From positions 2,580,001 through 2,612,000 of the forward strand of contig NC_008340.1 in the NCBI RefSeq assembly GCF_000014785.1: a stretch of DNA of 32,000 bases, written 5' to 3'. Below are positions 2,794 through 32,000 of the stretch, in pieces. The notes beneath the pieces are model-generated. The model saw only the letters and a list, made by a program, of their open reading frames with translations, ran no database searches and had not been told where the DNA came from. The translations under genes were made by a program, and so were the position numbers. Within the stretch, counting starts at the first letter, position 1; each line of letters opens with the position of its first letter. This stretch comes from Alkalilimnicola ehrlichii MLHE-1. Its GTDB lineage: Bacteria > Pseudomonadota > Gammaproteobacteria > Nitrococcales > Halorhodospiraceae.

Positions 2794-2799
2794 CCGGTG

Positions 2800-2831
2800 G
2801 ACCGGGCCGCGGGTCACACCGCGGCCCGGTC
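2800..2831. terminator. GC-rich hairpin between the convergent fabI and lipoprotein genes
   Basis: GACCGGGCCGCGG-gtcaca-CCGCGGCCCGGTC, a perfect 13-bp stem directly after the fabI stop. There is no clear T-run on either side. Confidence 0.4.
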
Positions 2832-2846
2832 TCCGCGAGGGGCGCC

Positions 2847-3248: not shown

Positions 3249-3341
3249 GTTATCTCCTGATGCATTCCGGGTTATCGATTGGGGTAATGGCCGGCGCCGG
3301 GCGCCGGAATCGGTTCACGAACATAGACCAAACCCGGGCAT

Positions 3342-3376
3342 AAAAAAACCCGCACCATTCGGCAGAACGGCGCGGG
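3342..3376 (-). terminator. Rho-independent terminator after the lactate permease gene
   Basis: The minus strand reads CCCGCGCCGTTCTGCCGAATGGTGCGGG followed by TTTTTTTA, 46 nt downstream of the permease stop. Confidence 0.7.
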
Positions 3377-3421
3377 CCTGCCAACTCCCCTCCGAGGGTC
3401 AGGAAGAGAGGGGAGAACGGC

Positions 3422-5257: not shown

Positions 5258-5387
5258 GAGCCCAACACCTCCTCCGGATCATTATTGAAGTGGGCTGGCA
5301 AGGTCCTTTCCGGCTTCTCTATCCATCGGCCTTCCACCACGGCCAGCACCGCTTTCGCAGGCTTACTGCCTGTCTCTCCCCGGCCGG

Positions 5388-6047
5388 TTACGCCCCGGCC
5401 AGCAACACGAGCAGTCGGCGCGGCCCGTGGGCCCCCAACTGCATGGTCTGCTCGACATCGGCCGTCCGCGACGGCCCGGTAATCAGGTTGATGACCCGCG
5501 GCCAGTCGTTGCCCAGGCGCTCGCGCAACACCACCCAGGCGTCCTCGAAATGCCCGACCAGGCGATCGGCGTCCACCAGCACCACGTGGTAATCGGGCAG
5601 GAAATTCAGGGTGGTGGGCGTCTCCGGCCCGGAGCGCAGGATCACGGTGCCGGTCTCAGCCACCGCCAGTACCGCCTCACTGACCCCTACCAGGTCGTCG
5701 CCGGCACTGGCGCCCTCGGTGACCGAGAGCCCGGCTCCAGCCCAGTCCAACCCGGCCAGCGCCGGCGCCATGCGCGCTTCCGCGGCCACCCCCTGGGCCT
5801 CGAGCCAGGTCTTGAGCGCCGCCGGTGCCTGATCGCGGTCGGCGATCCGCAGGCACTCCCCGGCCACCTTCTCAACGCCCGCGGCAAAGAGTTCGGCCAG
5901 TGGCCGCGCCGGCAACGCGGGGCGCAGCGGGTTCTGCTCACCCCCATGGATGCGCTGGTCCAGCACCGCCCTGCGGCTGTCCGACAGCGCCGGCCGGCCC
6001 AGGCCGCGGCGGACCGCGCCGAGTATCCGTTCCCGCCCGTCACTCAT
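5388..6047 (-). CDS. lutC: Lactate utilisation protein C (LUD domain)
   Basis: MSDGRERILGAVRRGLG...VSEAVLAVAETGTVIL...NFLPDYHVVLV is LutC/YkgG-like. The ATG at 6047 overlaps the lutB stop (ATGAGTGA). The track start at 6077 is an extension. Confidence 0.85.
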   Translation of the reverse strand: MSDGRERILGAVRRGLGRPALSDSRRAVLDQRIHGGEQNPLRPALPARPLAELFAAGVEKVAGECLRIADRDQAPAALKTWLEAQGVAAEARMAPALAGLDWAGAGLSVTEGASAGDDLVGVSEAVLAVAETGTVILRSGPETPTTLNFLPDYHVVLVDADRLVGHFEDAWVVLRERLGNDWPRVINLITGPSRTADVEQTMQLGAHGPRRLLVLLAGA

Positions 6048-9298: not shown

Positions 9299-9684
9299 CG
9301 GGGGGTGGGTGTGGCGGGTGCCCTCCCCCTGGTCACTGCGAGCCCCCGACCCATCACCCGTCACTGCGAGCCCCCGACCCATCACCCGTCACTGCGAGCC
9401 CCCGACCCATCACCCGTCACTGCGAGCCCCCGACCCATCACCCGTCACTGCGAGCCCCGGAGGGGCGCGGCAGTCCACGCCAGGGTATGGATCGCCGCGT
9501 CGCTTCGCTCCTCGCGATGACGGGGGGTGGCGCCCCCACCGTCACTGCGAGCGCGGCCCCGCCCCCACCGTCACTGCGAGCGCGGCCCCACCCCCACCGT
9601 CACTGCGAGGAGGCGAAGCCGACGTGGCAGTCTACCGCCCTGGATCGCCACGGGCCTGCAGCCCTCGCGATGACGGGGAGGGGG
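9299..9684 (+). repeat. Repeat array A of the GTCACTGCGAG...CTCGCGATGAC hairpin family
   Basis: It fills the whole convergent spacer between the regulator and ppiD. Heads fall at 9332/9360/9388/9416/9444 (28-bp period, identical filler CCCCCGACCCATCACCC). A full hairpin unit spans 9444-9523. Further heads fall at 9541/9570/9599 (29-bp period), and a second full unit ends about 9677. Confidence 0.95.
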
Positions 9685-9695
9685 CGTAGGCCGCG

Positions 9696-11269: not shown

Positions 11270-11346
11270 TGGCGGAGCGGACGGGACTCGAACCCGCGAC
11301 CTCCGGCGTGACAGGCCGGCATTCTAACCAACTGAACTACCGCTCC
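11270..11346 (-). tRNA. tRNA-Asp (anticodon GTC)
   Basis: The reverse complement is GGAGCGGTAGTTCAGTTGGTTAGAATGCCGGCCTGTCACGCCGGAGGTCGCGGGTTCGAGTCCCGTCCGCTCCGCCA. This is near-identical to E. coli tRNA-Asp as I recall it, with anticodon loop CTGTCAC. Confidence 0.95.
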
Positions 11347-11359
11347 GGATTGTAACCCT

Positions 11360-11435
11360 TGGTGGGTGGTGAGGGGATCGAACCCCCGACATTCGCCTTG
11401 TAAGGGCGACGCTCTCCCAGCTGAGCTAACCACCC
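11360..11435 (-). tRNA. tRNA-Val (anticodon TAC)
   Basis: The reverse complement is GGGTGGTTAGCTCAGCTGGGAGAGCGTCGCCCTTACAAGGCGAATGTCGGGGGTTCGATCCCCTCACCACCCACCA. The cloverleaf folds by hand, with anticodon loop CTTACAA. Confidence 0.95.
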
Positions 11436-14557: not shown

Positions 14558-15012
14558 GGTGGATCGCCGCGTCGCTGCGCTCCTCGCGATGACGGGGAGA
14601 AACCCTCCGGCCCGCGCGATGACGGGGTGGTGGGCCCCCACCGTCACTGCGAGGAGTGGCCCCCAACCGTCACTGCGAGGAGTGGCCCCCAACCGTCACT
14701 GCGAGGAGCGAAGCGACGTGGCAGTCTACCCCTCTGGATCGCCACGGGCCGTCGGCCCTCGCGATGACGGGGGTGGTGCCCCCTGCCCCCGTCACTGCGA
14801 GCCCCGAAGGGGCGTGGCAGTCCATGCCGGGGTGTGGATCGCCGCGTCGCTTCGCTCCTCGCGATGACGGGGAGAAACCCTCCGGCCCGCGCGATGACGG
14901 GGTGATGGGCCCCCACCGTCACTGCGAGGAGGCGAAGCCGACGTGGCAGTCTACCCCTCTGGATCGCCACGGGCCTTCGGCCCTCGCGATGACGGGGGTG
15001 GTGCCCCGCGAT
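14558..15012 (+). repeat. Repeat array B of the hairpin family (clpX-lon spacer)
   Basis: Tail-only modules at 14558-14630. Heads at 14643/14669/14695 (26-bp period, filler GAGTGGCCCCCAACC). Full units run about 14695-14770, 14791-14870 and 14918-14995. Confidence 0.95.
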
Positions 15013-17164: not shown

Positions 17165-18517
17165 TTACTCCTTCGTCTCGTCTTGCTTGGACTCGCCCTC
17201 GGCCGACTCGGCCTCGGGCTGCTGCGGGCTCATCAGCTCCTGCAGTGACATGGGCTTGTCCTCGACCTGCGCCTGCTGGACCACGTAGTCGACCACCTGG
17301 TCCTCCAGCACGGCCACCTCCACGCCCTCCATCAGCTGACGATTCTGGGCGTAGTAGCGCAGCACCTCTTCGGGCTGCTCGTAGCCGGCCGCCATCTCCT
17401 GCAGCGACTGCATGACCCGATCGCGGTCGAGCTTGATGTCGTTGCTGCGCACCAACTCGTTGACAATCAGGCCCAGGGCCACCCGGCGGCGGGCGTTCTC
17501 CTCGAACAGGGCGGCCGGCAGGTCGTCGGGCTCCTCCTGGCCGGACTGCTGCTGGCGGGACTGCTCCTGCTGGCGCAGCTGGTCGATCTCGGCATCCACC
17601 AGCACCTTCGGCAGTTCGATATCGGTGATATCGAGAAGCTGGTCCATCACCTGATGCTTGACCCGGCTGGCAACGGTCTGGTCGCGCTCGCGCTCCAGAT
17701 TGGTCTTGATCGCCTCGCGCAGCTTCTCGACCCCGCCCTCCTTGACGCCCACCTTCTCGGCGAAGGCATCGTCGATCTCCGGGTACTCCGGGGCCTCCAC
17801 CGTCTTAACCGTGACCGCGAACTGCCCGGCCTTGCCGGCCACCTCGCTGTCGGGGAACTCCTCCGGGAAGGTGTGCTCGATGGTGGTCTCGTCGCCGGCC
17901 TTGACGCCGGTGAGCCCCTCCTCGAAGGCCGGCGGCATCTGCCCGGCACCCAGCACCACGGGCACGTCGTTGCCCTCGTTGCCGGAGAACTCCTCACCGT
18001 CCACGGTGCCCTTGAAGTCGATGACCACCCGGTCCCCCTCCTGGGAGGCGCGGTCCACCTCGTTGTACTCGGCCTGCTGCTTGCGCAGGCGCTCGAGCAC
18101 CTCATCCACGTCGGCGTCGGTGATCTCCACCTGCGGGCGCTCGACCTTGATCTGGTCCAGGCCGGTGACCTCGAAGCTGGGCAGCACCTCGAAGGTGGCC
18201 TGGTACTCCAGGTCCTTGCCCTCCTCGGTCTGCTTGGGCTCGATCTCGGGGTTACCGGCCGGGCGCAGCTCCTTCTCACGCAGCGCCTCACTGTAGGTGC
18301 TCTGGACCAGCTCGCTCAGCACCTCGCCGCGCACCTGGGGCCCGTAGCGCTTGCGCACCACCTTGAGCGGCACCTTGCCCGGGCGGAAGCCGTCCATGCG
18401 AACGTTGCCGCGAAGCGACCGCAGGCGCTGATCCACCTTCTCCTCGACCTGCTCTGCGGGCACCTGCACGGTCATGCGGCGACCCAGCCCCTCGGTCGTC
18501 TCCACTGAAACTTGCAT
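17165..18517 (-). CDS. tig: Trigger factor
   Basis: MQVSVETTEGLGRRMTVQVPAEQVEEKVDQRLRSLRGNVRMDGFRPGKVP is the canonical trigger-factor N-terminus. The track start at 18631 reads through the tRNA-Leu gene and is rejected. Confidence 0.95.
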   Translation of the reverse strand: MQVSVETTEGLGRRMTVQVPAEQVEEKVDQRLRSLRGNVRMDGFRPGKVPLKVVRKRYGPQVRGEVLSELVQSTYSEALREKELRPAGNPEIEPKQTEEGKDLEYQATFEVLPSFEVTGLDQIKVERPQVEITDADVDEVLERLRKQQAEYNEVDRASQEGDRVVIDFKGTVDGEEFSGNEGNDVPVVLGAGQMPPAFEEGLTGVKAGDETTIEHTFPEEFPDSEVAGKAGQFAVTVKTVEAPEYPEIDDAFAEKVGVKEGGVEKLREAIKTNLERERDQTVASRVKHQVMDQLLDITDIELPKVLVDAEIDQLRQQEQSRQQQSGQEEPDDLPAALFEENARRRVALGLIVNELVRSNDIKLDRDRVMQSLQEMAAGYEQPEEVLRYYAQNRQLMEGVEVAVLEDQVVDYVVQQAQVEDKPMSLQELMSPQQPEAESAEGESKQDETKE

Positions 18518-18587
18518 TGAAAACCCCTTAACCGTCCTGTTCGCGGCGCCGCCGGGCGGCCACCGCCGTGTCTTTGAACTTGATGTG

Positions 18588-18674
18588 TGGTGCGAAAGGG
18601 GAGACTCGAACTCCCACGGGGTCGCCCCCACCAGGACCTAAACCTGGCGCGTCTACCAATTCCGCCACTTTCGC
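18588..18674 (-). tRNA. tRNA-Leu (anticodon TAG)
   Basis: The reverse complement is GCGAAAGTGGCGGAATTGGTAGACGCGCCAGGTTTAGGTCCTGGTGGGGGCGACCCCGTGGGAGTTCGAGTCTCCCCTTTCGCACCA. It has a long variable arm, and the acceptor stem GCGAAAG/CTTTCGC pairs. Confidence 0.9.
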
Positions 18675-18753: not shown

Positions 18754-19512
18754 ATGGGAACGCTGAAGACGCTCATCGGCCTGCTGGCCATGCCGCTGCC
18801 GCTGGCGGCGGTGCTGCTGTTGGCCGGCCTGCTGGCCGTCGGGTTGGGCCGGCAGCGGCTGGGCCTGACGCTTCTGGCCGCAGCGCCGGCGTTGGTGGTG
18901 GTGCTGGCCTGGGCACCGGTGGCCGACCGGCTGCTCGCCCCCCTGGAGCAGCGCCACCCGCCGGTGCATGACGCCCGCGACCACCCGGAGGCGCAGGCCA
19001 TCGTGGTGCTCGGCTCGGGTTACTCCCCCCACCTGGCCCTGCCGGTCACCGCGCAGCTCAACGACAGCGGCCTGGTGCGACTGAACGAAGGCATCCGCCT
19101 GCACCGCCAGCGCCCGGCGCTCCCCCTGATCGTCTCCGGCGGCGCCCGCCCCGACCAGGCCCCGATCGCCGAGGGCTTCCGCCGCGCGGCCATCGCCCTG
19201 GGCGTTGCGGACGACCGCCTCCTCCCCCTCACCGAGCCCCGCGACACCGCCCAGGAGGCCTATGCCACCCGCGAGGTCCTAGGCGAGGGGGCCACCGTGT
19301 TGCTGGTCACCTCCGCCTCTCACATCCACCGCGCCCAGGCGCACTTCCACCGCGCCGGCCTCAACCCCATCCCGGCCCCCACTCGCCACAAGGCCGGCCA
19401 CGTCCGCCCCGCCACCCCCGGCTACTGGATCCCCAGCGCCACCCACCTGCGCAAGAGCGAACGGGCCCTCTACGAATACATGGGCCTCCTGGCCGCGGGG
19501 CTGGACCACTGA
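18754..19512 (+). CDS. DUF218 (ElyC/YdcF/SanA-family) membrane-anchored protein
   Basis: N-terminal TM helices, then AIVVLGSGY...LPLIVSGG...DTAQEAYATREVL...VLLVTSASHIHRA, a pattern typical of DUF218. GGGAGA lies upstream of the ATG. Confidence 0.8.
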   Translation: MGTLKTLIGLLAMPLPLAAVLLLAGLLAVGLGRQRLGLTLLAAAPALVVVLAWAPVADRLLAPLEQRHPPVHDARDHPEAQAIVVLGSGYSPHLALPVTAQLNDSGLVRLNEGIRLHRQRPALPLIVSGGARPDQAPIAEGFRRAAIALGVADDRLLPLTEPRDTAQEAYATREVLGEGATVLLVTSASHIHRAQAHFHRAGLNPIPAPTRHKAGHVRPATPGYWIPSATHLRKSERALYEYMGLLAAGLDH

Positions 19513-19545: not shown

Positions 19546-20240
19546 GGACTGCCGCGCCCCCTTCGGGGGCTCGCAGTGACAGTGGAGGCACCACCCCCCG
19601 GTTATCGCGAGGGCCGCCACCTCCTCCCCGTCATCGCCAGGGCCGCCACCTCCTCCCCGTCATCGCCAGGGCCGCCACCTCCTCTCCGTCATCGCGAGGG
19701 CCGAAGGCCCGTGGCGATCCAGAGGGGTAGACTGCCACGTCGGCTTCGCCTCCTCGCAGTGACAGTGGGGGTACACCACCGCCCGTCATCGCGAGGAGCG
19801 CCCCTCCCCCCGTCATCGCGAGGGCCGAAGGCCCGTGGCGATCCAGAGGGGTAGACTGCCACGTCGGCTTCGCCTCCTCGCAGTGACAGTGGGGGTACAC
19901 CACCGCCCGTCATCGCGAGGAGCGCCCCTCCCCCCGTCATCGCGAGGGCCGAAGGCCCGTGGCGATCCAGGGCGGTAGACTGCCACGTCGGCTTCGCCTC
20001 CTCGCAGTGACAGTGGGGGTACACCACCGCCCGTCATCGCGAGGAGCGCCCCTCCCCCCGTCATCGCGAGGGCCGAAGGCCCGTGGCGATCCAGGGCGGT
20101 AGACTGCGACGTCGGCTTCGCCTCCTCGCAGTGACGGTGGGGGTGGGTCCCCGCTCGCAGCGACGGCGGGGCTTCCCCCGTCATCGCGAGGGCCGCCCCT
20201 CCCCTCGTCATCGCGAGGAGCGAAGCGACGCGGCGATCCA
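19546..20240 (-). repeat. Repeat array C of the hairpin family (inverted orientation)
   Basis: Tail micro-tandem at 19601/19630/19659/19688 (29-bp period). Four composite units follow with a 124-bp period (GTCATCGCGAGGGCCGAAGG at 19688/19812/19936/20060). Degenerate modules end at about 20240, 25 bp from the GIY-YIG stop. Confidence 0.95.
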
Positions 20241-20264: not shown

Positions 20265-20552
20265 TTAAATGATGTCGTGATACAAATCCCGCCACCCCGG
20301 ATTCATTGACTCTATCAACCCCACCTTCCGATTCCGGTTTCCCGACTTCAACTGCTTCTCCCGGCCGATGGCCGATGTCATGGTTTCATGGACTTCATAC
20401 CACACCAGCCGATGCAGGCCGTACCGTCGGGTAAACCCATCCACAAAGCCGGATTTATGCTGCCAGACACGTTGCACCAGGTTGCTGGTGACGCCGACAT
20501 AAAGCGTGCCGTTCCGGCCATTGGTCATGATATAGACACAGGGTTGGTTCAT
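20265..20552 (-). CDS. Stand-alone GIY-YIG nuclease (URI domain, COG2827/YhbQ-like)
   Basis: 95 aa: CVYIMTNGRNGTLYVGVTSNLVQRVWQHK...GFTRRYGLHRLVWYEVHETMTSAIGREKQLKSGNRNRKVGLIE (GIY...YVG, catalytic R and E). A strong AAGGAGG lies 7 nt upstream. GC is visibly lower (one 60-nt line spot-counted at 52%). Confidence 0.9.
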   Translation of the reverse strand: MNQPCVYIMTNGRNGTLYVGVTSNLVQRVWQHKSGFVDGFTRRYGLHRLVWYEVHETMTSAIGREKQLKSGNRNRKVGLIESMNPGWRDLYHDII

Positions 20553-20585: not shown

Positions 20586-21335
20586 CTATCCCCACTGCAC
20601 CACGCCCCGCACCAGCGTATACCCCCCGGCGACCAACGCCACTCCCAGCATCAGGTTCCGGTACGCGGCCAATGGAATCCAGTGGCCGAGGTACCGCGAC
20701 ACCCCCAGCCCCAGCACCACCCCCGGCAACAGGCTGGCGGCCAACGCCACATCCTGCCAGCCGAACCGCCCGGCCATGCCCAGCGCCGTGAGCGACATGA
20801 CGCTCATGGGCACGAAAATGGCATATAGCGTGCCGCGCACCCGCGCTGGAGAGGCGTTCTGATAGGCCAGCCCCAACGGCGGCCCACCCACTCCGGTAAT
20901 CGTGCCCATGGTCGCCGCGCACAGGCTGCCTGAGAACACCACGCTGCCGCGGGGCTGCACCTGGAGCCGGACCCAGCTCAGCACCACGGCCACCACAATC
21001 AGCGCCCCGAACAGGGTCTGCCACGCCGACAGCGGCAGCAGGCCGATCACCAGATAGGCCAACGCCGCCCCCAGCAGCGCCCCAGGCCAAGCCCAAGCCA
21101 GATCACGCACCACCACATGACGGGCATTGGCGCGCAGCAGCATCAGCGGCAGGATACCGCCGATCAGGACCAGCGGCGCCGGCACCAGGGTCGGGTGGAT
21201 CAGAAACAGCAAGGGCGCGCTGAACAGGGCCACGCCGTACCCGATCACGCCCTGGATCGCCGCACCGACGACGACGACACTCACCGCCAGCACCCACTGA
21301 AGCAGGCCCAGATCACCGAACACGATTGTCTCCAT
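20586..21335 (-). CDS. TauE/SafE (DUF81) family anion-exporter permease
   Basis: 249 aa with about 7-8 TM segments. The Gly-rich motifs GAAIQGVIGYGVALFSAPLL and TGVGGPPLGLAY are typical of the family. Confidence 0.85.
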   Translation of the reverse strand: METIVFGDLGLLQWVLAVSVVVVGAAIQGVIGYGVALFSAPLLFLIHPTLVPAPLVLIGGILPLMLLRANARHVVVRDLAWAWPGALLGAALAYLVIGLLPLSAWQTLFGALIVVAVVLSWVRLQVQPRGSVVFSGSLCAATMGTITGVGGPPLGLAYQNASPARVRGTLYAIFVPMSVMSLTALGMAGRFGWQDVALAASLLPGVVLGLGVSRYLGHWIPLAAYRNLMLGVALVAGGYTLVRGVVQWG

Positions 21336-21390
21336 TGCAAGCCATCATTCCCGCCGCAGCCAGTGTGCCAACCTACACCGCGGTTACCGG

Positions 21391-21673
21391 ACTGCACAGA
21401 GGGGCGTGGCAGTCCAGGCGGCGGGTGGATCGCCGCGTCGCTTCGCTCCTCGCGATGACGGGGGTGGGTGCCGCCCCCACCGTCACTGCGAGGAGGCGAA
21501 GCCGACGTGGCAGTCTACCGCTCTGGATCGCCACGGGCCTTCGGCCCTCGCGATGACGGGGGTGCCCCGTTCCTCGTTGATTCGGGCCCGCGCAGCGGGG
21601 AGGGGGGCTCGCGATGACGGGGTGGGTGCCGCCCCCACCGTCACTGCGAGCCCCGGAGGGGCGTGGCAGTCCA
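21391..21673 (+). repeat. Repeat array D of the hairpin family
   Basis: A degenerate head plus GGGGCGTGGCAGTCC...TGGATCGCCGCGTCGCTTCGCTCCTCGCGATGACGG, a full unit at 21481-21560, a tail-only module about 21608-21620, and a head plus half unit at 21639-21673. Confidence 0.9.
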
Positions 21674-21814
21674 GACCGAGGGCTATTGGCTGCGGCTACA
21701 AAACGCTTACGATCTGGAGGAGGCACGCCGCCACATGGCCGCATGAGCGGCAGCACCTGCTGCGCAGTTCACGGGCTTGTATTTAGCCCTGCTTCCGTTG
21801 CGCCTTGAAAGGCC

Positions 21815-23002
21815 TCAGATCTGCCGCAACGCACGCTCCAAATGCCCAAAGCCGATCCGCTCCTGTTCCAGCCTCAGGCAATCCTGCAGGGTATCTTCCC
21901 GCAGGTCCTGGAAAAGCGCCTGTTCCGCCTCGGTGAGTAGCGAAAGGCGCCCTGTGAACCGCTTGTTAGCCGGCTCCCGCCCCCACATCTCACGGTGCAT
22001 CTCCAACGTCTCGCGGTCCATGAGCAGGGATCGGGCGTGGGGCAGGCGGGTGCGCAGGCGGTGGAGCATGGCGAAGCCGTGGGTGTCGATATCGCCCCAG
22101 TAGTGGACCGCCACCTCCCGCAGCCAGCCAACCCCCGCCAACCGCTCCAGCCCATAGCCCAGACCGAAGATCACCAGGCCGCCCGGGTGGTCGGGGAAGG
22201 CCAGGCCATTGATCTCGTTCTCGGTGATGAAGACCCGGCGCACCGGCAGGCGCAGGTCGGCGAACTGTTCCGGGGGCACCGAGAGGTCGCTCAGCCCCTG
22301 CACGTAGAGGGCGGGGTCCAGCAACCGGAAGCGCACCAGCGCCGGCTTCTCCCGCAGCCCGAAACGCCGTTCGAAGCCCCGGGCGCCGGTGGCCGACGGG
22401 TCGATGGCGGCCTCGGGCAGCACCGCGTCCAACAACTCGGTGAACAGCCGGCGCCGGGCCTCGATGAACTTGGTGTCCACCCCGGGGATGTCCAGTTGCC
22501 GCAGATAGATACCGGGCCGGGGGTGGGCGCGGAACCAGTCCAGCACGTCCAGAATGCGCGGCCAGGCCCCGGCCTCCGCCAGCGCCTGCAGCGGCCGCCG
22601 GGCCAGCCAGTCTGCCAGCGACGGGAAGCGGCGCAGGGTCTCCCCGGCCAGCGCCCGAAAGCGGGCCGCCTCCCGCTCACGGCCGATCAGGCGCAAGCCG
22701 TCCGCCTCGCTCGGGACAATCGCCCCGGCGGGCAGGTCATTGGCCCCATGCACCCGGTGGTTCACCCGCCGCCACTCGATCCCGTAGCCGTACCCCCGCT
22801 CATCGCGGCTGCCGGCCTGAAGCTGCTGCACCCAACGGCGCACGGCGACGAAGTCCTCGGCCAGATCCCGGGAGGTGGGGCGGCGCAGCCGCAGCGTGAG
22901 CGGAAAGAGCGACTCGCCGCGCACATAGGCGGCCAGCCAATCGCCGCGCTCCCATTGGCGCAACAACTGCTGGCGCAGCTCGTCGGGTGTCGTCCAACTC
23001 AT
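21815..23002 (-). CDS. jetD: Wadjet JetD (DUF3322 plus Toprim/DUF2220 nuclease subunit)
   Basis: From the internal ATG at 23002 (ATGA overlap with the jetC stop): MSWTTPDELRQQLLRQWERGDWL... Toprim acidic motifs are VFITENEINGLAF and YWGDIDTHGFAMLHRLR. The track start at 23278 lies inside jetC and is rejected. Confidence 0.9.
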   Translation of the reverse strand: MSWTTPDELRQQLLRQWERGDWLAAYVRGESLFPLTLRLRRPTSRDLAEDFVAVRRWVQQLQAGSRDERGYGYGIEWRRVNHRVHGANDLPAGAIVPSEADGLRLIGREREAARFRALAGETLRRFPSLADWLARRPLQALAEAGAWPRILDVLDWFRAHPRPGIYLRQLDIPGVDTKFIEARRRLFTELLDAVLPEAAIDPSATGARGFERRFGLREKPALVRFRLLDPALYVQGLSDLSVPPEQFADLRLPVRRVFITENEINGLAFPDHPGGLVIFGLGYGLERLAGVGWLREVAVHYWGDIDTHGFAMLHRLRTRLPHARSLLMDRETLEMHREMWGREPANKRFTGRLSLLTEAEQALFQDLREDTLQDCLRLEQERIGFGHLERALRQI

Positions 23003-26000
23003 GGCGCGATACGCTGGCGGGCGGCCTTCTCCGCCTGGTACTCCGCAATGGTGAGATTGCGCACCATAGACTCGCGCCCCTCCACGTTGTGCACAAACCC
23101 CACGCTGGCCACGAAGGGCTCGATGATGTGGATCTTCTGCAACGGGGTGACGATCAGCAACTGCAGGTTCAACCGCTGGAACAGCTCCAGGCCGTAACGG
23201 GCGGACTCGTCCGAGCCGCGGCCGAAGGCCTCGTCGATGACCACGAAGCGGAACGAGCGCGAGCGGGTCTCGCCCCACTCCAGCCCGAACTGGTAGGCCA
23301 GGCTCGCGGCCAGCACGGTATAGGCCAGCTTCTCCTTCTGCCCCCCGGACTTGCCCCCGGAATCGGCGTAGTGCTCGTACTCGCTGTCGTCCTCGCGCCA
23401 GCGTTCGGAGGCGGAGAAGACGAACCAGTTGCGCACATCGGTGACCTTGCGGGTCCAGCGCCGGTCCAGGTCGGTGGTTCCCTCCCGGCCGCGGAAGCGC
23501 TCGATGATGGCCTTCACCTGCAGGAACTTGGCCTCGGAGTACTGATCGTCGTCCGAGCCGGTCACCGCCCCCTCGGTGCAGGCGCGCAGGCTCTGCTGAA
23601 AGTCGCGGATCTCCGCGTCCGGGGCGCTTTCCGCCATCAGGGTGATGTAACGGTTGTCGTTGTAGTCGATCTCACGCAGCGAGCGGTTGATGGTGCCGAT
23701 GCGCTCCAGGATCGCCTGGCGCTCCCGATGCAGCCGGCTCTGGAAGGCGGCCACCTCGCGGATGGTGTTTTCGTTGAGCAGCTCCTTGAAGCGGGCCTCG
23801 AAGCGGGGCAGATCATCTGCCTGCAACTGCTCGAGCATGGCGCGATAGTCGCCGGCGGCCTCGACGCTCACATCCACCTCCTGGCTGTCCAGCGGCCAGG
23901 CGTCCTGGTAGCGGCGCATGGCGTCGATGATGCGGTCGCGCAACTGCGCCAGGCGCTTGTCCTCCGCGTCGATCTTGCCCTGCAGCCATTCGCGCATGTC
24001 CTTCTCGCGGTTGTCGCAGGACTCCACCGTCAGGGTGTGCTCACCCAGGGCCTCGTCGCGCATGGCGGCCAGGCGCGGAAAGTAGGTCTGCTGCGCCTCT
24101 TCCGGTGTCGACTCCAACAGCGTGTGGCAATCCTGCCACTGGGCCCGGGCCTGCTCCTGTTTCAGCTCGTTGGCGCTGATCTCGCGATCCGCCTGGCGGA
24201 CCTCGCCCTCGACGCCCTTGATGGTCTTTTCCAGCTCATCCAGTTGCCGCTCCAGCGCCCGGAGCACGTCCGAGCCCTCGGCCAGCTCCCGGTACTCGCG
24301 CTCCAGCGCCTCAATGTCGGCAGCCAGCGGACGCCAGTCCAGGGCCTGAAAATCCTGGAACAGGGTCAGCTCCTGGATGGTGTCGCGGCGGGCCTCCTGG
24401 GCCCGCCGTTCGTCCTCCCAGCCACCGATGCGCTTGGCGATGGCCTGCATGCGCTCGGCCAGCCCGTCGGCCTCGGCCTCCAGCGCGGCGATCTTCGCCT
24501 CGTTGCTCCAGCCCAGCACATAACGGGTGCGGTCATCGATACGGTGGCGGTCGTCCTTCTCGTGGCGGCCACCGCCGGCCTTTATCTGCCCGGCACGGGT
24601 GATCGCCCGCTTCTCACGACGGAATTGCTGCAGATCGGTGCAGCAAGCGTAATCGAAGCGCTGCGCCAGCGCCTGCTCCAGCCAGGTATAAAACGCCGAC
24701 TCCGGCCGGATGGCCAGCTTGCGCACCAGCGAGTCGGCGTGCAGCGACGGCGGCGGCGCGTCGCGGGCTTCGCGCACGCGGTAGTAGACCAACCGCCCCC
24801 GCAACCGGGTGCGGTCCACCCACTCGGCGACGCGGGCGTAGTGGCTGTCGGGCACCAGCAGCGACAGGCCGAAGTTGTGCAGCACCCGTTCGATGGCGCC
24901 CTCCCAGTCGCGCTCGTCGTCACGCACCTGCAGCAGTTCACCGGCGAAGGGCAGGTCCTCGGCGGGCACCTCCAGCGCGCGGCACAGGGCGGTGCGGATG
25001 GCGAGGATCTCCGCCGGGATGTTGGAGCGTCGACCGCGCAGCGATGCCAGCTCGGCATCCAGGTCCTCGTGCCGCCCCTTGAGCTGGTGCAGCTCCACGC
25101 TGGCCTCCGTAATCCGGTTCTGCAGCTCGCTGCGGGCGGTCTCGGTGGCCTCGCGGGCCACGGTGAGCGCCTCGCGGTTGGCGTGAAAGACCTCGTCGCT
25201 GGTGGCATCGGGCAGCTCCAGCCGGTGCGCCAGCCGCCGGTAGCGCTCGGCCTTCTCGCTGCGCTCCGCCTTCTCCCGCCGCTTGCGCTCCAGCTCCGCC
25301 TTGATCCGCTCCAGGCGGTCGCCGCCGTTCTCGGCGATCGCCTGCTTGAGCTCGTCGCGCCGGGCCCGCTGCTCGGTGAGCCGAGTGCTCAGCCCCTCAA
25401 TGCGCTGCTGCAGCCGCTCGTGCTCCTGGCCCAGGTTGTCCAACCGGCGGTCCAGCAGCTCGGCCTTCAGCGAGGCGAACCAGGGCCGCAACGCCTGGCG
25501 GCAATCGCGCAGCTCCCGGGCCCGGGTGGCCCGTTGGTCGTGCTCGTCGGCATCGCGCACCAGGGGAATCAACTGCGCCACCTGCGACTTGGCCTTCAAC
25601 ACCGCCTCGTGGGCCCGGTTGAGGTCGTCGAAATGGCGGATCAGCGCCTCGATCCGCTCCTCGACGGGGAAGGCCTCCAGCATGTGACTGCGCACGAACT
25701 CGGTCAGGTTACCCACCGACTTCATGGAGACCGTCTGGTTAAAGAGCTCCAGGGCCTGCTCATTGTCGATGCCGAAGCGCCGCCGGAAGGCACCGCCGTA
25801 GGGCGGAAAGGTGTCGTACAACTCCACGTGGGGCAGCCCGCGCAGGCGCTTGCGCAGGTTGGCCAGGTCGGTGCCGAAATTGGCGAAGTGCTCGGCGATG
25901 TTCAGCGGGCGGTCGGCGACCACGAAAAACCGCGCCGGCTGGCCCTGGGTGTCCTTCATCCAGAAGACCTGGGCCAGGGTCACATCGTGGCCGAAGCCCT

Positions 26001-26391
26001 CGTTGTGGAAGTGGCCGAGGATGACCGAGTAGTTGTTATGGTCGCGCAGGCCCACCGGCTTGCTGGCCAAGCCGGCGTCGCTACGCTCCGACTTGTAGTA
26101 GCCGAGGACGTAAGAGCGCAGGCTGCGCTCCTTGGCCTCCGCGCCGGCGGCCTTGTTGTAGGTGATCCGCTGAGCCGGCACCAGCAGCGTGGTGATGGCG
26201 TCCACCAAGGTGGACTTGCCGGAGCCGATGTCCCCGGTCAGCAGGCTGTTGTCGCCGCCGGGCTGCAGCGACCAGACGCGGTCGTGGAAGGTGCCCCAGT
26301 TGAACACCTCCAGCCGCTGGAGGCGAAAACCGGTGCGCTGGTCGGAGCCGGCGAAATCCAGTCCCTGGGTTTCCATACGATGGGGTTCCAT
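22999..26391 (-). CDS. jetC: Wadjet JetC (SMC/MukB-like ATPase)
   Basis: 1130 aa from the ATG at 26391. It has FRLQRLEVFNWGTFHDRVW, Walker A LLTGDIGSGKSTLVDAI, a long central Glu/Arg/Leu-rich coiled-coil region, and Walker B FRFVVIDEAFGRGSD. Confidence 0.92.
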   Translation of the reverse strand: MEPHRMETQGLDFAGSDQRTGFRLQRLEVFNWGTFHDRVWSLQPGGDNSLLTGDIGSGKSTLVDAITTLLVPAQRITYNKAAGAEAKERSLRSYVLGYYKSERSDAGLASKPVGLRDHNNYSVILGHFHNEGFGHDVTLAQVFWMKDTQGQPARFFVVADRPLNIAEHFANFGTDLANLRKRLRGLPHVELYDTFPPYGGAFRRRFGIDNEQALELFNQTVSMKSVGNLTEFVRSHMLEAFPVEERIEALIRHFDDLNRAHEAVLKAKSQVAQLIPLVRDADEHDQRATRARELRDCRQALRPWFASLKAELLDRRLDNLGQEHERLQQRIEGLSTRLTEQRARRDELKQAIAENGGDRLERIKAELERKRREKAERSEKAERYRRLAHRLELPDATSDEVFHANREALTVAREATETARSELQNRITEASVELHQLKGRHEDLDAELASLRGRRSNIPAEILAIRTALCRALEVPAEDLPFAGELLQVRDDERDWEGAIERVLHNFGLSLLVPDSHYARVAEWVDRTRLRGRLVYYRVREARDAPPPSLHADSLVRKLAIRPESAFYTWLEQALAQRFDYACCTDLQQFRREKRAITRAGQIKAGGGRHEKDDRHRIDDRTRYVLGWSNEAKIAALEAEADGLAERMQAIAKRIGGWEDERRAQEARRDTIQELTLFQDFQALDWRPLAADIEALEREYRELAEGSDVLRALERQLDELEKTIKGVEGEVRQADREISANELKQEQARAQWQDCHTLLESTPEEAQQTYFPRLAAMRDEALGEHTLTVESCDNREKDMREWLQGKIDAEDKRLAQLRDRIIDAMRRYQDAWPLDSQEVDVSVEAAGDYRAMLEQLQADDLPRFEARFKELLNENTIREVAAFQSRLHRERQAILERIGTINRSLREIDYNDNRYITLMAESAPDAEIRDFQQSLRACTEGAVTGSDDDQYSEAKFLQVKAIIERFRGREGTTDLDRRWTRKVTDVRNWFVFSASERWREDDSEYEHYADSGGKSGGQKEKLAYTVLAASLAYQFGLEWGETRSRSFRFVVIDEAFGRGSDESARYGLELFQRLNLQLLIVTPLQKIHIIEPFVASVGFVHNVEGRESMVRNLTIAEYQAEKAARQRIAP

Positions 26392-26393
26392 GC

Positions 26394-26993
26394 TCACTGC
26401 CCGTCGCCGGCGGTAGTGGTGGCCTCGGCGTGCTCGCGGTACTCGGCCAGGCGCTGGTCGAACTCCGCCAGCCACTGGGCGTCGATATAGGCCTTGATGA
26501 TCCGGCGCACCTCGTACTGATTATCCTGCCCGCGCAGCCGGCGCAGGAAACCCAGCTCCACCACCTTGTTGATGTCCGCGTGCACCCGGTCCACCAACTT
26601 CGCCTCGTTGGCGCTGGCCGGCAGGAAGACACGGATCAGCTCCACGATCTGCTCCCGCGAGAGGATCAGCCGCGGGTCGCCGCCGCCGGCATCGTGCTCC
26701 ACCAGCTTCTTGCGCAGCAGCGCCAGCAGCAGGCTTACCGGGTAGGTGAGCTGGCGGCGCGGCACCAGCCGGGGCAGCTCCGGCTCGTCCTCGGCGGGGG
26801 TCCGCTGGCGCAGGCAGGCGTGGCCCTCGGCCTCGTCCAGCATCAGCTCCAGCCCGAGCACGGCCACGTGGTCGCGCACCCGCGCCTGGTGGTCCTCAAG
26901 CACCTGCCAGTAGCGAGGGTTCTGGTCCTTGTACAGCACACCCTTGAACAGGGTGATCAGCATGGCCGAGAAGTCGGCGTCCTGTTCGCTCAT
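26394..26993 (-). CDS. jetB: Wadjet JetB (DUF4194, kleisin-associated KITE-like subunit)
   Basis: 199 aa from the ATG at 26993: MSEQDADFSAMLITLFKGVLYKDQNPRYWQVLEDHQARVRDHVAVLGLELMLDEAEGHACLRQ. This pattern, the size, and the position between jetA and jetC are all as in JetB. Confidence 0.85.
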   Translation of the reverse strand: MSEQDADFSAMLITLFKGVLYKDQNPRYWQVLEDHQARVRDHVAVLGLELMLDEAEGHACLRQRTPAEDEPELPRLVPRRQLTYPVSLLLALLRKKLVEHDAGGGDPRLILSREQIVELIRVFLPASANEAKLVDRVHADINKVVELGFLRRLRGQDNQYEVRRIIKAYIDAQWLAEFDQRLAEYREHAEATTTAGDGQ

Positions 26994-26997
26994 AGGC

Positions 26998-28434
26998 TCA
27001 ACGGCAGAAGATAACCTGCGGTAGCGTGGCGCTGCGGGCAACGCCGTCACGGTCGCGCCAGTATACGGTCTGCTGGCGGGTTTCATCGATCACGCTGCGG
27101 TGATCCTCTGTGGCCAGGGCCAGGTAGACCACCAGTTCGGCCAGGCCCTGCTCCAGCGGGTGTTGCTCCAACAGGGCCGCCAGGCTGATCTGCTCGCGGG
27201 TCTGCAGCGCCCGGCGCACCTGCCCTTGCAGCCGGGTGCGGTCCACGTAGGCCTGGTCGAACAGCGCCGCCACGTCGCCCTCCGCCTCGCCCGCCTCCAG
27301 CACCTGCTGCTCGATGCGCGGCGTAACCGGCGGACTGAAGAGCGGGCGCTCCATGGGCAGCTCCACCCGGGGCGCGGGTTCGTCCAGGGCCATGGTGAAA
27401 TCCCGGGGCGGGGCTTCCCGCAGGTGCAGGGCCTGCTGCTCCAACTCGCGGATCAGCCCCATGATGCGGCGGTTCTCCAGCCAGGCCTGATCGTCCAGAT
27501 AGCGGCGCAACTGCTCGGAGAGCCGCGCCACCACCCGCTGGGTGTGCTCGCCCGCCGCCAGCCAGTCGTAATGGATGCGGGCCAGGGTCGGGTCGGGCGC
27601 CACCTCGGTCACGGGCTCGAGCGCCAGGGTGCGCTCGAGCAGTTCGGTCAACTCCTCCTGGCGAGCCGGGGACATGAGCAGATCCCAGAAGGCGCGGAAG
27701 CTGCGGCCCTGGTCGGAATCGGCGATGCGGTCGTGCTCGCCGAAGACCTGGTCGAGGATATCGCCCTTGCCGCCCTCCCAGGTGGCCACCTGCTCGCGCA
27801 CCTGGCGGTCCAGCGCGCGGAAGTTGGCCTCCACCTGGCGGAAGTCCCCCAGCAGCCCGCGGGCCGTGTCGGCCATCTGCAGAAAACGCTCGCGCAGGCG
27901 GGTGGGGTCCATCAGGTTCAGGTGCCCGGCCCGCACCTCGTCGATCTCGCGCTCGATGGCGTCGCGCCGCGCCTCCAGATCGCGCAGGCGGGCCTCCGGG
28001 TCGGTCTCCGCCCCCTCCACGATCTGTTTCAGCAGATCAAACACCAGGGTGAGCCGCGACTCCGCACCGATAAAGTGGGCCTGCTCCAGGCCCGCCAGCC
28101 ACTGGATCGCCTGCTCGGTGGCCGGGGTGAGGTCGTAGTGGGGTTCGTCGCTGTGCTGCGGGTAGTACTTGCGCAACCAACCGCGCTCATCGGCAGCCCA
28201 ATATGCCAGGTACTCGTGAGCGCCCTGCTGGTAGGCCTCGTCACCCAACCGGGCGCGCAGGTGGTAGAGGTAGTCCTCCAGCGCATTCTCCAGCTCCGAG
28301 GCCGGCAGCGCCCGCACGTTGGGCACCACGAAACAGCGGTGCAGAAAGGCCACGACCATCGGCGCGTTACCGGCCTGCAACAGGCGCCACCCCGGATGGG
28401 TGCGCCGCAGGCTGTATAGGTGATCGTGATCCAT
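26998..28434 (-). CDS. jetA: Wadjet JetA (DUF3375, kleisin-like subunit)
   Basis: 478 aa: MDHDHLYSLRRTHPGWRLLQAGNAPMVVAFLHRCF...LEDYLYHLR...YLAYWAADERGWLRKYY. It is the first gene of the four-gene operon. Confidence 0.88.
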   Translation of the reverse strand: MDHDHLYSLRRTHPGWRLLQAGNAPMVVAFLHRCFVVPNVRALPASELENALEDYLYHLRARLGDEAYQQGAHEYLAYWAADERGWLRKYYPQHSDEPHYDLTPATEQAIQWLAGLEQAHFIGAESRLTLVFDLLKQIVEGAETDPEARLRDLEARRDAIEREIDEVRAGHLNLMDPTRLRERFLQMADTARGLLGDFRQVEANFRALDRQVREQVATWEGGKGDILDQVFGEHDRIADSDQGRSFRAFWDLLMSPARQEELTELLERTLALEPVTEVAPDPTLARIHYDWLAAGEHTQRVVARLSEQLRRYLDDQAWLENRRIMGLIRELEQQALHLREAPPRDFTMALDEPAPRVELPMERPLFSPPVTPRIEQQVLEAGEAEGDVAALFDQAYVDRTRLQGQVRRALQTREQISLAALLEQHPLEQGLAELVVYLALATEDHRSVIDETRQQTVYWRDRDGVARSATLPQVIFCR

Positions 28435-28461
28435 GGGGCTCGGGGTCGGGAATGTCGGGGG

Positions 28462-28470
28462 ATTGTAGCA
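28462..28470 (-). promoter_or_regulatory. Possible extended -10 promoter (TGcTACAAT) for jetA
   Basis: The minus strand reads TTGCTACAAT about 27-36 nt upstream of the jetA ATG. No good -35 element is present. Only about 65 bp separate jetA from repeat array E. Confidence 0.25.
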
Positions 28471-28499
28471 AGGTGGCCGGGCCTCGGCCTATGACGGCG

Positions 28500-29265
28500 T
28501 GTGGATCGCCGCGTCGCTGCGCTCCTCGCGATGACGGAGGGGTGGGTGCCCCCCACCGTCACTGCGAGCGCGGATCCGCCCCCACCGTCACTGCGAGGAG
28601 CGAAGCGACGTGGCAGTCTACCCCTCTGGATCGCCACGGGCCTCCGACCCTCGCGATGACGGGGGGTGTTACCCCACCGTCACTGCGAGGAGGCGAAGCC
28701 GACGTGGCAGTCTACCCCTCTGGATCGCCACGGGCCTCCGGCCCTCGCGATGACGGGGGGTGTTGCCCCCACCGTCACTGCGAGGAGGCGAAGCCGACGT
28801 GGCAGTCTACCCCTCTGGATCGCCGCGGGCCTCCGGCCCTCGCGATGACCGGGGGGTGTTGCCCCCACCGTCACTGCGAGGAGGCGAAGCCGACGTGGCA
28901 GTCTACCCCTCTGGATCGCCACGGGCCTCCGGCCCTCGCGATGACGGGGGGTGTTGCCCCCACCGTCACTGCGAGGAGGCGAAGCCGACGTGGCAGTCTA
29001 CCCCTCTGGATCGCCGCGGGCCTTCGGCCCTCGCGATGACGGGGGGTGTTGCCCCCACCGTCACTGCGAGGAGGCGAAGCCGACGTGGCAGTCTACCCCT
29101 CTGGATCGCCGCGGGCCTTCGGCCCTCGCGATGACGGGGGGTGTTGCCCCCACCGTCACTGCGAGGAGGCGAAGCCGACGTGGCAGTCTACCGCCCTGGA
29201 TCGCCGCGGGCCTCCGGCCCTCGCGATGACCGGGGGGAAAGCCTCCGGCCCTCGCGATGACGGGG
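28500..29265 (+). repeat. Repeat array E of the hairpin family (type array, 95-bp units)
   Basis: Heads GTCACTGCGAG at 28558, 28587, 28679, 28774, 28870, 28965, 29060 and 29155. Seven near-identical full units have periods of 92-96 bp. Two tail-only modules close the array at about 29265. Confidence 0.97.
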
Positions 29266-29390: not shown

Positions 29391-30575
29391 ATGTTAAGCG
29401 ACCAAGACCTGCTTGAACGCCTACGGAACGGGGAGTCCCGTCGGGTGGAGTTCAAACCCTCCACGGCGCAAAATACCGCGATCCGGAGGGCCATCTGTGC
29501 ATTCGCCAACGATCTTGATGGGCAGGGCGAGATCGGCGTGATCTTCGTGGGGCTCAACGATGACGGGACCTGCAAAGGGATCGAACATCCAGACCGCGAC
29601 CAGAAGAAGCTATCCGACTGGGCCTTGGGGGGCGACATCCTCCCCCTTCCTGACGTGGAAATCGGTTATCGCGAGCTGGACGGTTGCCCTGTCATAGTCG
29701 CCGAGATACGCCCCCACCAAGAACCCCCGGTACGCTACCAGGGCCAGGCGTGGGTCAGGGTTGGCACCACCAACCGCCGCGCTACTCCGGAACAGGAGAG
29801 ACGTTTGGCGGAGCGACGGCGGGGCGGAGACCTTCCCTTCGACCATCGGCCGGCCCCCGGCGCCAGTCTTGATGACCTCGATCTGAGGTACTTCGAGCGC
29901 GAGTACCTGCCCAATGCCGTCGCACCGGAGGTCCTGGAAGAGAACAACCGTAGCATCGAAGATCAACTCAACGCCCTCAGGTTTCTCACCCAGGGCCAAG
30001 TCAACCACGGTGCTCTGCTCGTCCTGGGGCACGACCCGACCGCCTATATACCGGGGGCCTACGTGCAGTTCCTACGCATCGACGGAACCGAGCTGGGCGA
30101 CCCCATCAAGGACGAAAAGAGACTGACCGGCAACCTGCCCGAGGTCATGGCGCAGCTGGACGAGTTGTTGGAGGTGCACATCCAGGTTGCTGTCGACATC
30201 GAGGCCGGATCACGGGAGCAGCGCCAGCCCGACTACCCCGTTGTTGCCTTGCAGCAACTCACCCGGAACGCCCTCATCCATCGCGCCTACGAAGGCAGCC
30301 ACGCGCCGGTCCGCGTCTATTGGTTCAGAGACCGGGTGGAAATTCAGAACCCCGGCGGACTCTACGGCCAAGTCACCACCGACAACTTCGGTCAGGGTGT
30401 CACCGATTACCGCAACCCCCTGATAGCAGAAGCCATGCATATTCTCGGCTACGTACAGAGATTCGGGTTCGGCATCCCATTGGCACAGCGCCACCTGCGG
30501 GAAAACGGCAACCCCGACCCCGATTTTCAGTTCGCGCCAGAGTTCCTGGCCGTCACCGTGAGGGCAGTGACGTGA
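29391..30575 (+). CDS. Schlafen/AlbA_2-domain protein with a C-terminal HATPase_c_4-like domain (COG2865-like), no terminal wHTH
   Basis: The N-terminal motif set is LLERLRNGESRRVEFKPS...AICAFANDLDGQGEIGVIFVGLNDDGTCKGI. The C-terminal segment is QLTRNALIHRAYEGSHAPVRVYWFRDRVEIQNPGGLYG...YRNPLIAEAMHILGYVQRFGFGIPL. Domain names come from motif memory, not from a search. Confidence 0.85.
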   Translation: MLSDQDLLERLRNGESRRVEFKPSTAQNTAIRRAICAFANDLDGQGEIGVIFVGLNDDGTCKGIEHPDRDQKKLSDWALGGDILPLPDVEIGYRELDGCPVIVAEIRPHQEPPVRYQGQAWVRVGTTNRRATPEQERRLAERRRGGDLPFDHRPAPGASLDDLDLRYFEREYLPNAVAPEVLEENNRSIEDQLNALRFLTQGQVNHGALLVLGHDPTAYIPGAYVQFLRIDGTELGDPIKDEKRLTGNLPEVMAQLDELLEVHIQVAVDIEAGSREQRQPDYPVVALQQLTRNALIHRAYEGSHAPVRVYWFRDRVEIQNPGGLYGQVTTDNFGQGVTDYRNPLIAEAMHILGYVQRFGFGIPLAQRHLRENGNPDPDFQFAPEFLAVTVRAVT

Positions 30576-31543
30576 TAACCATTGCCTTCTTCAACAACAA
30601 GGGTGGCGTCGGCAAGACTGCTTTGGTCTACCATTTGGCCTGGATGTTCGCCGATCAGGGCCGGTCCGTGCTCGCCGCGGACCTGGACCCCCAAGCCAAC
30701 CTCTCCACCATGTTCCTGGACGAACAAAGCCTGGAAGGCTTCTGGCCGGAGGGGGACAGCACGCATACCGTACTCTCACCCATACGCCCACTGCTGGAAG
30801 GCGAAGGCGGCATCGAAAGCCCTCATGTTGAGCCCATCGAGGACCTAGGCCTGCTGGTCGGAGACCTGGCCCTGTCCGGCTTCGAGGACGAACTCTCCCA
30901 GCAATGGCCCCGCTGCCTGGACGGCGAGAAGCGGGCCTTTCGCATCATCGGCGCCTTTGCCGAAGTCATCCAACGTGCCGGCGCCAACCGGGAAGCCGAC
31001 CTGGCGCTGGTGGATGTCGGCCCCAACCTGGGAGCCATCAATCGTGCCGCACTCATTGCCGCAGATTATGTGGTCGTGCCCCTGGGGCCGGACCTCTTTT
31101 CCCTGAAGGGACTGCAAAACCTGGGCCCCACCCTCCGACGGTGGCGTACGGACTGGCGCAAGCGGCTGCAGGAATTACCCACCAATGTACAAGCCCCATC
31201 GGGGCAAATGACGCCGATCGGTTACGTGGTCATGCAGCATTCCGTCCGACTTGACCGGCCGGTCAAGGCGTATGGCAAATGGATGGACCGGATCCCCAGC
31301 ACTTACCACCGTTACGTCCTCGACAAACCGGACGCTGCCAACCTGCGTGTCGACGACGACAGCGAATGTCTGGCTGCATTGAAGGACTATCGGAGCCTGA
31401 TGCCCATGGCTCAGGAAGCCCGCAAGCCCATGTTTCACCTCAAACCGGCGGACGGCGCCATCGGCTCCCACGTCCGTGCGGTACAAAACTGCTACAAAGA
31501 TTTCCGGGACCTGGCAGCGGCTATCGACAGCCGCACGCAGTGA
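30572..31543 (+). CDS. Orphan ParA/MinD-superfamily ATPase with a C-terminal extension
   Basis: GTG at 30572 overlaps the upstream TGA (GTGA). Motifs are VITIAFFNNKGGVGKTALV (deviant Walker A), LAADLDPQANLS and DLALVDVGPNLG. The next in-frame ATG would remove the Walker A, and the track ATG at 30320 would overlap the upstream gene by about 250 nt. Confidence 0.85.
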   Translation: MITIAFFNNKGGVGKTALVYHLAWMFADQGRSVLAADLDPQANLSTMFLDEQSLEGFWPEGDSTHTVLSPIRPLLEGEGGIESPHVEPIEDLGLLVGDLALSGFEDELSQQWPRCLDGEKRAFRIIGAFAEVIQRAGANREADLALVDVGPNLGAINRAALIAADYVVVPLGPDLFSLKGLQNLGPTLRRWRTDWRKRLQELPTNVQAPSGQMTPIGYVVMQHSVRLDRPVKAYGKWMDRIPSTYHRYVLDKPDAANLRVDDDSECLAALKDYRSLMPMAQEARKPMFHLKPADGAIGSHVRAVQNCYKDFRDLAAAIDSRTQ

Positions 31544-32000
31544 CGGTGGGGGCACCCCCCGTCATCGTGATGAGTGCAGGCCCTCCCCCCGGCATCGCGA
31601 GGGCCGAAGGCCCGTGGCGATCCAAGGCGGTAGACTGCCACGTCGGCTTCGCCTCCTCGCAGTGACGGTGTGGGCAACACCCCCCGTCATCGCGAGGGCC
31701 GAAGGCCCGTGGCGATCCAAGGCGGTAGACTGCCGCGTCGGCTTCGCCTCCTCGCAGTGACGGTGTGGGCAACACCCCCCGTCATCGCGAGGGCCGAAGG
31801 CCCGTGGCGATCCAAGGCGGTAGACTGCCACGTCGGCTTCGCCTCCTCGCAGTGACGGTGGGGTAACACCCCCGTCATCGCGAGGGCCGAAGGCCCGCGG
31901 CGATCCAGGGCGGTAGACTGCCACGTCGGCTTCGCCTCCTCGCAGTGACGGTGGGGGCAACACCCCCCGTCATCGCGAGGGCCGAAGGCCCGCGGCGATC
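31543..32000 (-). repeat. Repeat array F of the hairpin family (inverted orientation, runs off the window end)
   Basis: Tails G(T/G)CATCGCGAGGGCCGAAGG fall at 31591, 31686, 31781, 31874 and 31969 (period 93-95 bp). The reverse complement of a unit is near-identical to array E units, including the linker GGGGGGTGTTGCCC. Confidence 0.95.

Follow-up and report, generated by a model that had tools for sequence, protein, structure and literature searches.

The closest described relatives of the system reported here are the type I Wadjet complexes JetABCD of Escherichia coli GF4-3 (PDB 8as8, 8bfn, 8q72 and 9qxr-9qxx) and of Pseudomonas aeruginosa PA14 (8dk1-8dk3 and 7til), together with MksBEFG of Corynebacterium glutamicum, which carries another gene nomenclature and comes from another phylum. 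The circles cut by the studied systems are plasmids of up to roughly 100 kb. C. glutamicum MksG alone cleaves DNA in vitro, is proposed to use Y258 for this, and has drastically impaired nuclease activity in the E236A and D279A variants (PMC10123090); E248A of E. coli JetD is likewise a cleavage-deficient mutant (bioRxiv 10.1101/2023.11.03.565488). We analysed a stretch of 32,000 nucleotides from the chromosome of Alkalilimnicola ehrlichii MLHE-1 (NC_008340.1, positions 2,580,001 to 2,612,000; this whole stretch is called the window, and coordinates count from its first letter). With a probability that we put at about 0.93, it carries a complete and intact type I Wadjet (JetABCD; alias MksBEFG, EptABCD), made up of four genes:

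26998-28434, minus strand: jetA, 478 aa, kleisin-like subunit, DUF3375
26394-26993, minus strand: jetB, 199 aa, KITE/MukE-like subunit, DUF4194/MksE
22999-26391, minus strand: jetC, 1130 aa, SMC/MukB-like ABC ATPase
21815-23002, minus strand: jetD, 395 aa, nuclease subunit; DUF3322 (arm/CAP) domain at the N terminus, Toprim domain at the C terminus

An initial annotation, made from the letters alone, had described four co-directional genes of these sizes, coupled by a 4-nt gap, a 2-nt gap and an ATGA overlap. The six-frame list of open reading frames (ORFs) reproduced the genes, all of them on the minus strand in the order jetA-jetB-jetC-jetD as a single operon, and the junctions proved exact on direct reading: TGAgcctATG between jetA and jetB, TGAgcATG between jetB and jetC, and the 4-nt overlap ATGA between jetC and jetD. 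This junction architecture is kept in five related loci. GC content by codon position marks the minus-strand frames as coding (0.89-0.94 at third positions, GC3, and 0.36-0.47 at second positions, GC2), and the long antisense ORFs that cover the jet genes (e.g. 22987-26490 on the plus strand) were rejected as shadows of a 67% GC genome. The sole ambiguous start among the jet genes is that of jetC, for which the automatic call in a second A. ehrlichii strain (GCA_049200435.1) uses Met6 and gives a protein of 1125 aa. This start was discarded and the 1130-aa version retained because the jetB/jetC junction is conserved among relatives: the form TGAnnATG recurs in four relatives, and over five related loci the start codon lies 2 nt past the jetB stop or, in one case, overlaps that stop by one base.

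Searches with profile hidden Markov models (HMMs) assigned the expected families to all four proteins. JetA matched Pfam PF11855 (DUF3375; E=2.5e-163) over residues 9-476 of 478 and profile positions 2-474 of 474. JetB matched PF13835 (DUF4194; 8.8e-48) and PF21980 (MksE; 3.9e-18), and JetD matched PF11795 (DUF3322; 3.1e-64) and PF09983 (JetD_C; 4.4e-65). The two ends of JetC were recognised separately, as AAA_29 in the N-terminal head (residues 24-84; 2.1e-24) and as SbcC_Walker_B in the C-terminal head (residues 982-1072; 2.5e-24). Matches of all four proteins far exceed the Pfam gathering cut-offs. The type was assigned from the best PADLOC profile for each subunit, and in every case this was a full-length type I model: JetA1 (PDLC00457, 717.7 bits, full length), JetB1 (PDLC00474, 310.1 bits, full length), JetC1 (PDLC00512, 1677.3 bits, E 0, residues 6-1126) and JetD1 (PDLC00530, 504.4 bits, E 6e-152, full length). 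Wadjet types II and III use these four protein families too, but the A. ehrlichii proteins score marginally on their models, with E-values of at least 2e-4 or no score at all (JetC2 7.7e-4, JetD3 2.4e-4). The operon is an ordinary member of its family, already recognised by routine public annotation, and not a new kind of system. JetD is 100% identical to the NCBI entry 'Wadjet anti-phage system protein JetD domain-containing protein [Alkalilimnicola ehrlichii MLHE-1]', and it has at least 7990 homologues at E<=1e-20.

The catalytic motifs listed in the initial annotation (GSGKST and VVIDEAF in JetC, ITENE and GDIDTHGF in JetD) are all present, and their catalytic residues are conserved when aligned with the solved proteins. 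The JetC Walker A motif reads GDIGSGKST from G53 to T61, with the lysine at position 59, and its Walker B motif VVIDEAF at 1050 (E1054) aligns to IILDEAF of a solved JetC. We add an ABC signature, SGGQKEK from S1015, which was absent from that list and aligns to SGGEKE of the solved protein. JetD carries the Toprim motifs ITENE (E261) and GDIDTHGF (DxD at 304-306, i.e. D304 and D306). E261 aligns both to the mutated A248 of E. coli JetD(E248A) and to MksG E236, D304 (in G-D-I-D) aligns to MksG D279, and E379/E381 align to the MksG EQE motif, E349/E351. The two MksG residues whose replacement impairs the nuclease thus have counterparts in A. ehrlichii JetD. With the families assigned by HMMs and the catalytic residues unmutated, neither of the findings named beforehand as refuting a Wadjet was made.

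Sequence matches in the PDB were limited to JetA, JetB, JetC and JetD/MksG chains of the three systems named at the outset. E. coli GF4-3 shares all four subunits and their gene order; JetC aligns to it over residues 18-1118 (8as8_A, 1.2e-63), JetA over 6-455 (8q72_E, 3.1e-21) and JetD over 5-356 (8q72_M, 5.8e-18), and the Toprim glutamate (E261 for E248), the DxD, Walker A and B and the signature motif are all conserved. It is nevertheless a distant orthologue, with JetB matched at only 1e-05 (8as8_C/9qxt_C), and differs in that the A. ehrlichii system belongs to a high-GC haloalkaliphile and is known from sequence alone. The P. aeruginosa PA14 complex gave the best PDB match for JetA (8dk1_A, 1.2e-22) and for JetC (8dk2_C, 6.5e-67, colinear over residues 22-1113), and its JetD (7til) was matched at 2.9e-17 over residues 5-393. 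This colinearity supports a head-arm-hinge-arm-head layout for JetC, as far as an alignment can suggest one. The relationship is again remote, and the system here falls in a different type I sub-clade, its best models being PDLC00457, 474, 512 and 530. For JetD itself the best PDB match was C. glutamicum MksG (8b7f, 1.2e-20).

By homology to these three systems, JetC dimers would be bridged by the kleisin JetA and a dimer of the KITE protein JetB to form a dimer of motors. This JetABC assembly would load on DNA and extrude loops with ATP, and on a small circular molecule extrusion would run to completion. The stalled, DNA-bending complex would then activate the JetD Toprim nuclease, presumably a dimer, and a double-strand cut in the bent DNA would prevent plasmid establishment. 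The 3.3-Mb chromosome would be spared since extrusion on it would never complete. Nothing in the jet sequence contradicts this mechanism; for A. ehrlichii, we infer expression, assembly of the complex, a size threshold and plasmid restriction by analogy with the studied systems.

Several observations weigh against reading the operon as a working Wadjet. With E-values of 1e-63 to 7e-67 for JetC, 1e-17 to 1e-20 for JetD and 1e-05 for JetB, the operon is only remotely similar to the systems studied by biochemistry, so that properties including the size threshold for plasmids may not be the same. At 199 aa, JetB falls about 50 aa short of its counterparts in the solved complexes (249-250 aa; 250 aa in E. 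coli); several of the PADLOC JetB1 models are equal to it in length. A consensus promoter scan of the operon gave nothing convincing, no Shine-Dalgarno sequence precedes jetA, and the consensus scan found no canonical terminator after jetD. Three terminator-like matches, all of them inside jetC, were discarded as being at the level expected from shuffled sequences. Direct reading did yield one possible signal, which the promoter scan, needing a -35 match, left uncalled:

28462-28470, minus strand: TGcTACAAT, a candidate extended -10 element located 27 nt before the jetA start codon

A different function has to be weighed against plasmid defence. The operon could encode a chromosome-organising condensin of the MksBEF type, with JetD accessory or unused and a role in chromosome folding or segregation. 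The SMC-kleisin-KITE architecture is common to Wadjet and to the MukBEF/MksBEF condensins, JetABC being MukBEF-like and JetB also matching Pfam MksE; in addition, the operon adjoins core housekeeping genes and is vertically retained in two species. However, MukBEF and MksBEF, whose substrate is the chromosome, have no Toprim nuclease, whereas jetD is present here, overlaps jetC and keeps its metal-binding residues, and JetD is described as exclusive to the JET/Wadjet family (bioRxiv 10.1101/2023.11.03.565488). The preference of all four proteins for Wadjet type I models points the same way. Together with the distribution of the cassette among relatives, described next, these points make the condensin role very unlikely.

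Methylonatrum kenyense and an Ectothiorhodospiraceae metagenome-assembled genome (MAG) encode Jet proteins 74-90% identical to those of A. ehrlichii (78-90% for Methylonatrum) in unrelated contexts. Among the best 120 trigger-factor homologues, by comparison, Tig identity outside a sister species of A. ehrlichii is at most 66%, a pattern which suggests that the cassette has spread horizontally between soda-lake Ectothiorhodospiraceae. The neighbours differ from genome to genome. In Methylonatrum the cassette lies beside RES-Xre and AbiE genes and a WYL regulator, in the Ectothiorhodospiraceae MAG beside PIN-Phd, in the sister species beside HepT-MNT, and in Alkalilimnicola sp. S0819 beside a type I restriction-modification system with an embedded AlbA_2/HATPase_c_4 gene (locus L011, 15650-17614). 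A genome whose Tig is 63% identical has folD-pilZ-radA upstream of tig and no Wadjet there, and in Halorhodospira halophila SL1 the system has decayed. Varied contexts beside toxin-antitoxin, abortive-infection and restriction-modification genes, absence from the tig locus of a more distant relative and decay in H. halophila SL1 fit accessory defence genes and not essential condensins. A trigger-factor search of genome contigs for further relatives returned only an Oleiphilaceae MAG, 43% identical. There was no sign in plasmid databases that the operon is plasmid-borne: megablast of the operon against PLSDB gave a single match (592 bp, 82%, on a Ca. Thiodictyon megaplasmid), and tblastn of JetD against plasmids gave at most 51% identity, on replicons of at least 484 kb among the matches listed.

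The decayed Wadjet of H. halophila SL1 (CP000544.1; locus L012, 7598-11188) keeps an intact jetD (395 aa, 66% identical), but its JetA is truncated to 412 aa and jetB is missing. Its jetC is a remnant of 354 aa that joins residues ~432-638, 851-966 and 1084-1126 and lacks both motifs of the ATPase head. The surroundings include an integrase and genes of the IS605 family.

Comparison of MLHE-1 with the second strain, which has the same gene order, gave a ratio of non-synonymous to synonymous substitution rates (dN/dS) of 0.13 for the jet genes (64 synonymous and 26 non-synonymous changes), and 0.07 for jetC. Such values show purifying selection and argue for an operon that is functional and constrained. 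In the sister species, known from a metagenomic contig and with a Tig 90% identical, jetABCD occupies the same tig-proximal site; identity to MLHE-1 is 84-93.5% for the Jet proteins, compared with 80.6-97.4% for the flanking housekeeping proteins. Because the locus is the same and divergence is like that of housekeeping genes, we conclude that the operon predates the split of the two species. The jet block is thus present at the same location in both related genomes, and the earlier suggestion of an older residence gains support from this as well as from its host-like composition. That the operon is instead an inactive or decaying remnant, intact in appearance only, is hardly credible: the scans for promoter, ribosome-binding site and terminator yielded no verified signal and a relative has decayed in H. 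halophila SL1, but the four ORFs are full length against HMMs, the catalytic residues are intact, dN/dS is low, and divergence from the sister species is comparable to that of housekeeping neighbours.

Between the two A. ehrlichii strains, the block from the neighbouring TauE-family permease gene through jetDCBA (20586-27377, against 1-6792 of the second strain's locus L005) has a synonymous divergence (dS) of 0.048. This divergence is patchy, at 0-28 mismatches per 500 bp, with 28 at 22000-22499 and none at 21500-21999. The tig-clpP-clpX-lon-ppiD genes have a dS of 0.0023, about 20-fold lower. The contrast suggests that homologous recombination between members of the species has exchanged alleles and replaced parts of the TauE-jet block.

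The genes around the operon in MLHE-1 are as follows:

left of the operon: lon, clpX, clpP and tig, in this order along the plus strand; tig at 17165-18520, minus strand
18588-18674, minus strand: tRNA-Leu(TAG), directly upstream of tig and ~3 kb from jetD
18754-19512, plus strand: DUF218 gene
20265-20552: GIY-YIG gene, 95 aa
20586-21335: TauE-family permease gene, separated from jetD by a repeat-containing spacer of 479 bp
29391-30575, plus strand: SLFN_AlbA_2/HATPase_c_4 gene, 394 aa
30572-31543, plus strand: ParA/AAA_31-like ATPase gene, 323 aa, with a 4-nt overlap with the SLFN_AlbA_2/HATPase_c_4 gene

The initial annotation had called this region a defence island, and had noted that the jet genes resemble the host in GC content and the neighbouring cassette does not. 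The composition is as claimed: the jet genes have a GC content of 0.68-0.70 against a window mean of 0.675, and the AlbA_2-ParA cassette (29391-31543) has 0.61-0.62, with a GC3 of 0.68-0.76. The island is another matter. Wadjet is the only recognised defence system within the window. The TauE, GIY-YIG and DUF218 proteins have no PADLOC match, and the right-hand two-gene cassette is uncharacterised, with domain-level PADLOC matches only (Aga_SIR2-PNTD 5e-15, PDC-M28B 1e-7). A tblastn search of the ParA-like protein against plasmids gave generic ParA matches, of at most 35% identity among the matches listed; these were dismissed as uninformative about a defence role. The label 'defence island' is therefore weakly supported for this genome; in the relatives described above, the same Wadjet clade does have defence genes beside it.

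Upstream of tig lies a variable hotspot. The jetD-TauE spacer, which has repeat units in MLHE-1, contains a toxin-antitoxin pair of the HepT/MNT (NTP_transf_2) kind in the sister species (locus L016, 7842-8652). There, another MNT-like gene upstream of jetA (L016, 439-738) replaces the AlbA_2-ParA cassette, and there is no DUF218 or GIY-YIG gene between TauE and tig.

The intergenic repeats belong to a family resembling repetitive extragenic palindromes and bacterial interspersed mosaic elements (REP/BIME-like). Its core, CGTCAYYGCGAG, has 56 matches in the window against 0.02 expected, and the arrays are built of 26-29-bp, 95-bp and 124-bp units. CGTCAYYGCGAG occurs twice, as inverted copies, within the 95-bp unit, whose computed fold is a long hairpin (-53.5 kcal/mol, z = -3.7). 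Six intergenic regions bear repeats:

9332-9686
14583-14994
19589-20216: array to the left of the operon
21400-21700: jetD-TauE spacer, with one full 95-bp unit (~21440-21570) and partial units
28525-29262: array upstream of jetA, with the 95-bp unit at 28578-29237 plus edge copies (Tandem Repeats Finder period 95, 7.0 copies, 97% matches)
31585-32000

Repeats as boundaries of an island were rejected, as CGTCAYYGCGAG fills six intergenic regions, those between GntR and ppiD and between lon and clpX included. The family is also found in the sister species, beside its Wadjet and in clpX-lon among other places, and was not found in the loci fetched from other genera. Copy number differs between the two A. 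ehrlichii strains through indels of 84, 95 and 219 bp. The repeats are thus a lineage-wide REP/BIME-like family and not specific to this locus.

The description of the operon as flanked by two direct arrays holds in part. The jetD-TauE spacer has five CGTCAYYGCGAG matches at 21449-21650, and its single full unit at ~21440-21570 has the same orientation as the 28578-29237 array (unit scan score 165/190); however, the large array on the left, at 19589-20216, is oriented opposite to that array (alignment score 477 reversed versus 42 forward). The arrays at 19589-20216 and from 31585, which extends to the window end, are mutually direct, and the AlbA_2-ParA cassette is flanked by mutually inverted arrays. 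Recombination between repeats could in principle delete or invert the jet block. One could go further and suppose that recombination between the arrays bracketing TauE-jetABCD allows A. ehrlichii lineages to exchange, invert or shed Wadjet. This would explain the ~20-fold higher, mosaic dS of the TauE-jet block between strains and, if true, would make plasmid receptivity a strain- or population-variable trait. We consider it unlikely; the jet block is neither deleted nor inverted in any of the three comparable genomes (MLHE-1, the second strain and the sister species).

If the operon works as a Wadjet, A. ehrlichii MLHE-1, an arsenite-oxidising haloalkaliphile from soda lakes that is of interest for genetics, is predicted by analogy to resist small replicative plasmids. 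Deletion of the jet genes, or the use of large, linear or integrative vectors, may make it more tractable. Gains in tractability are reported on loss or removal of Wadjet in Clostridium cellulovorans, and the approach is reported to have been considered for Cupriavidus necator. The locus offers little new biology and its practical value is local; it is a tidy example of a Wadjet cassette that two sister species retain vertically at the same site and that is apparently shared horizontally among soda-lake Ectothiorhodospiraceae.

Two further features of the window deserve mention. Translation of a plus-strand ORF at 28203-29039 (278 aa), which runs through the REP array, gives peptides of the 'PLDRHGPPALAMTGG' type over and over; the ORF is almost certainly a spurious product of the repeats. 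At the gathering threshold, Rfam recognised three tRNAs only in the window and no known RNA family in the repeats. Two of these, tRNA-Asp and tRNA-Val, lie on the minus strand at 11270-11435, between ppiD and hupB.

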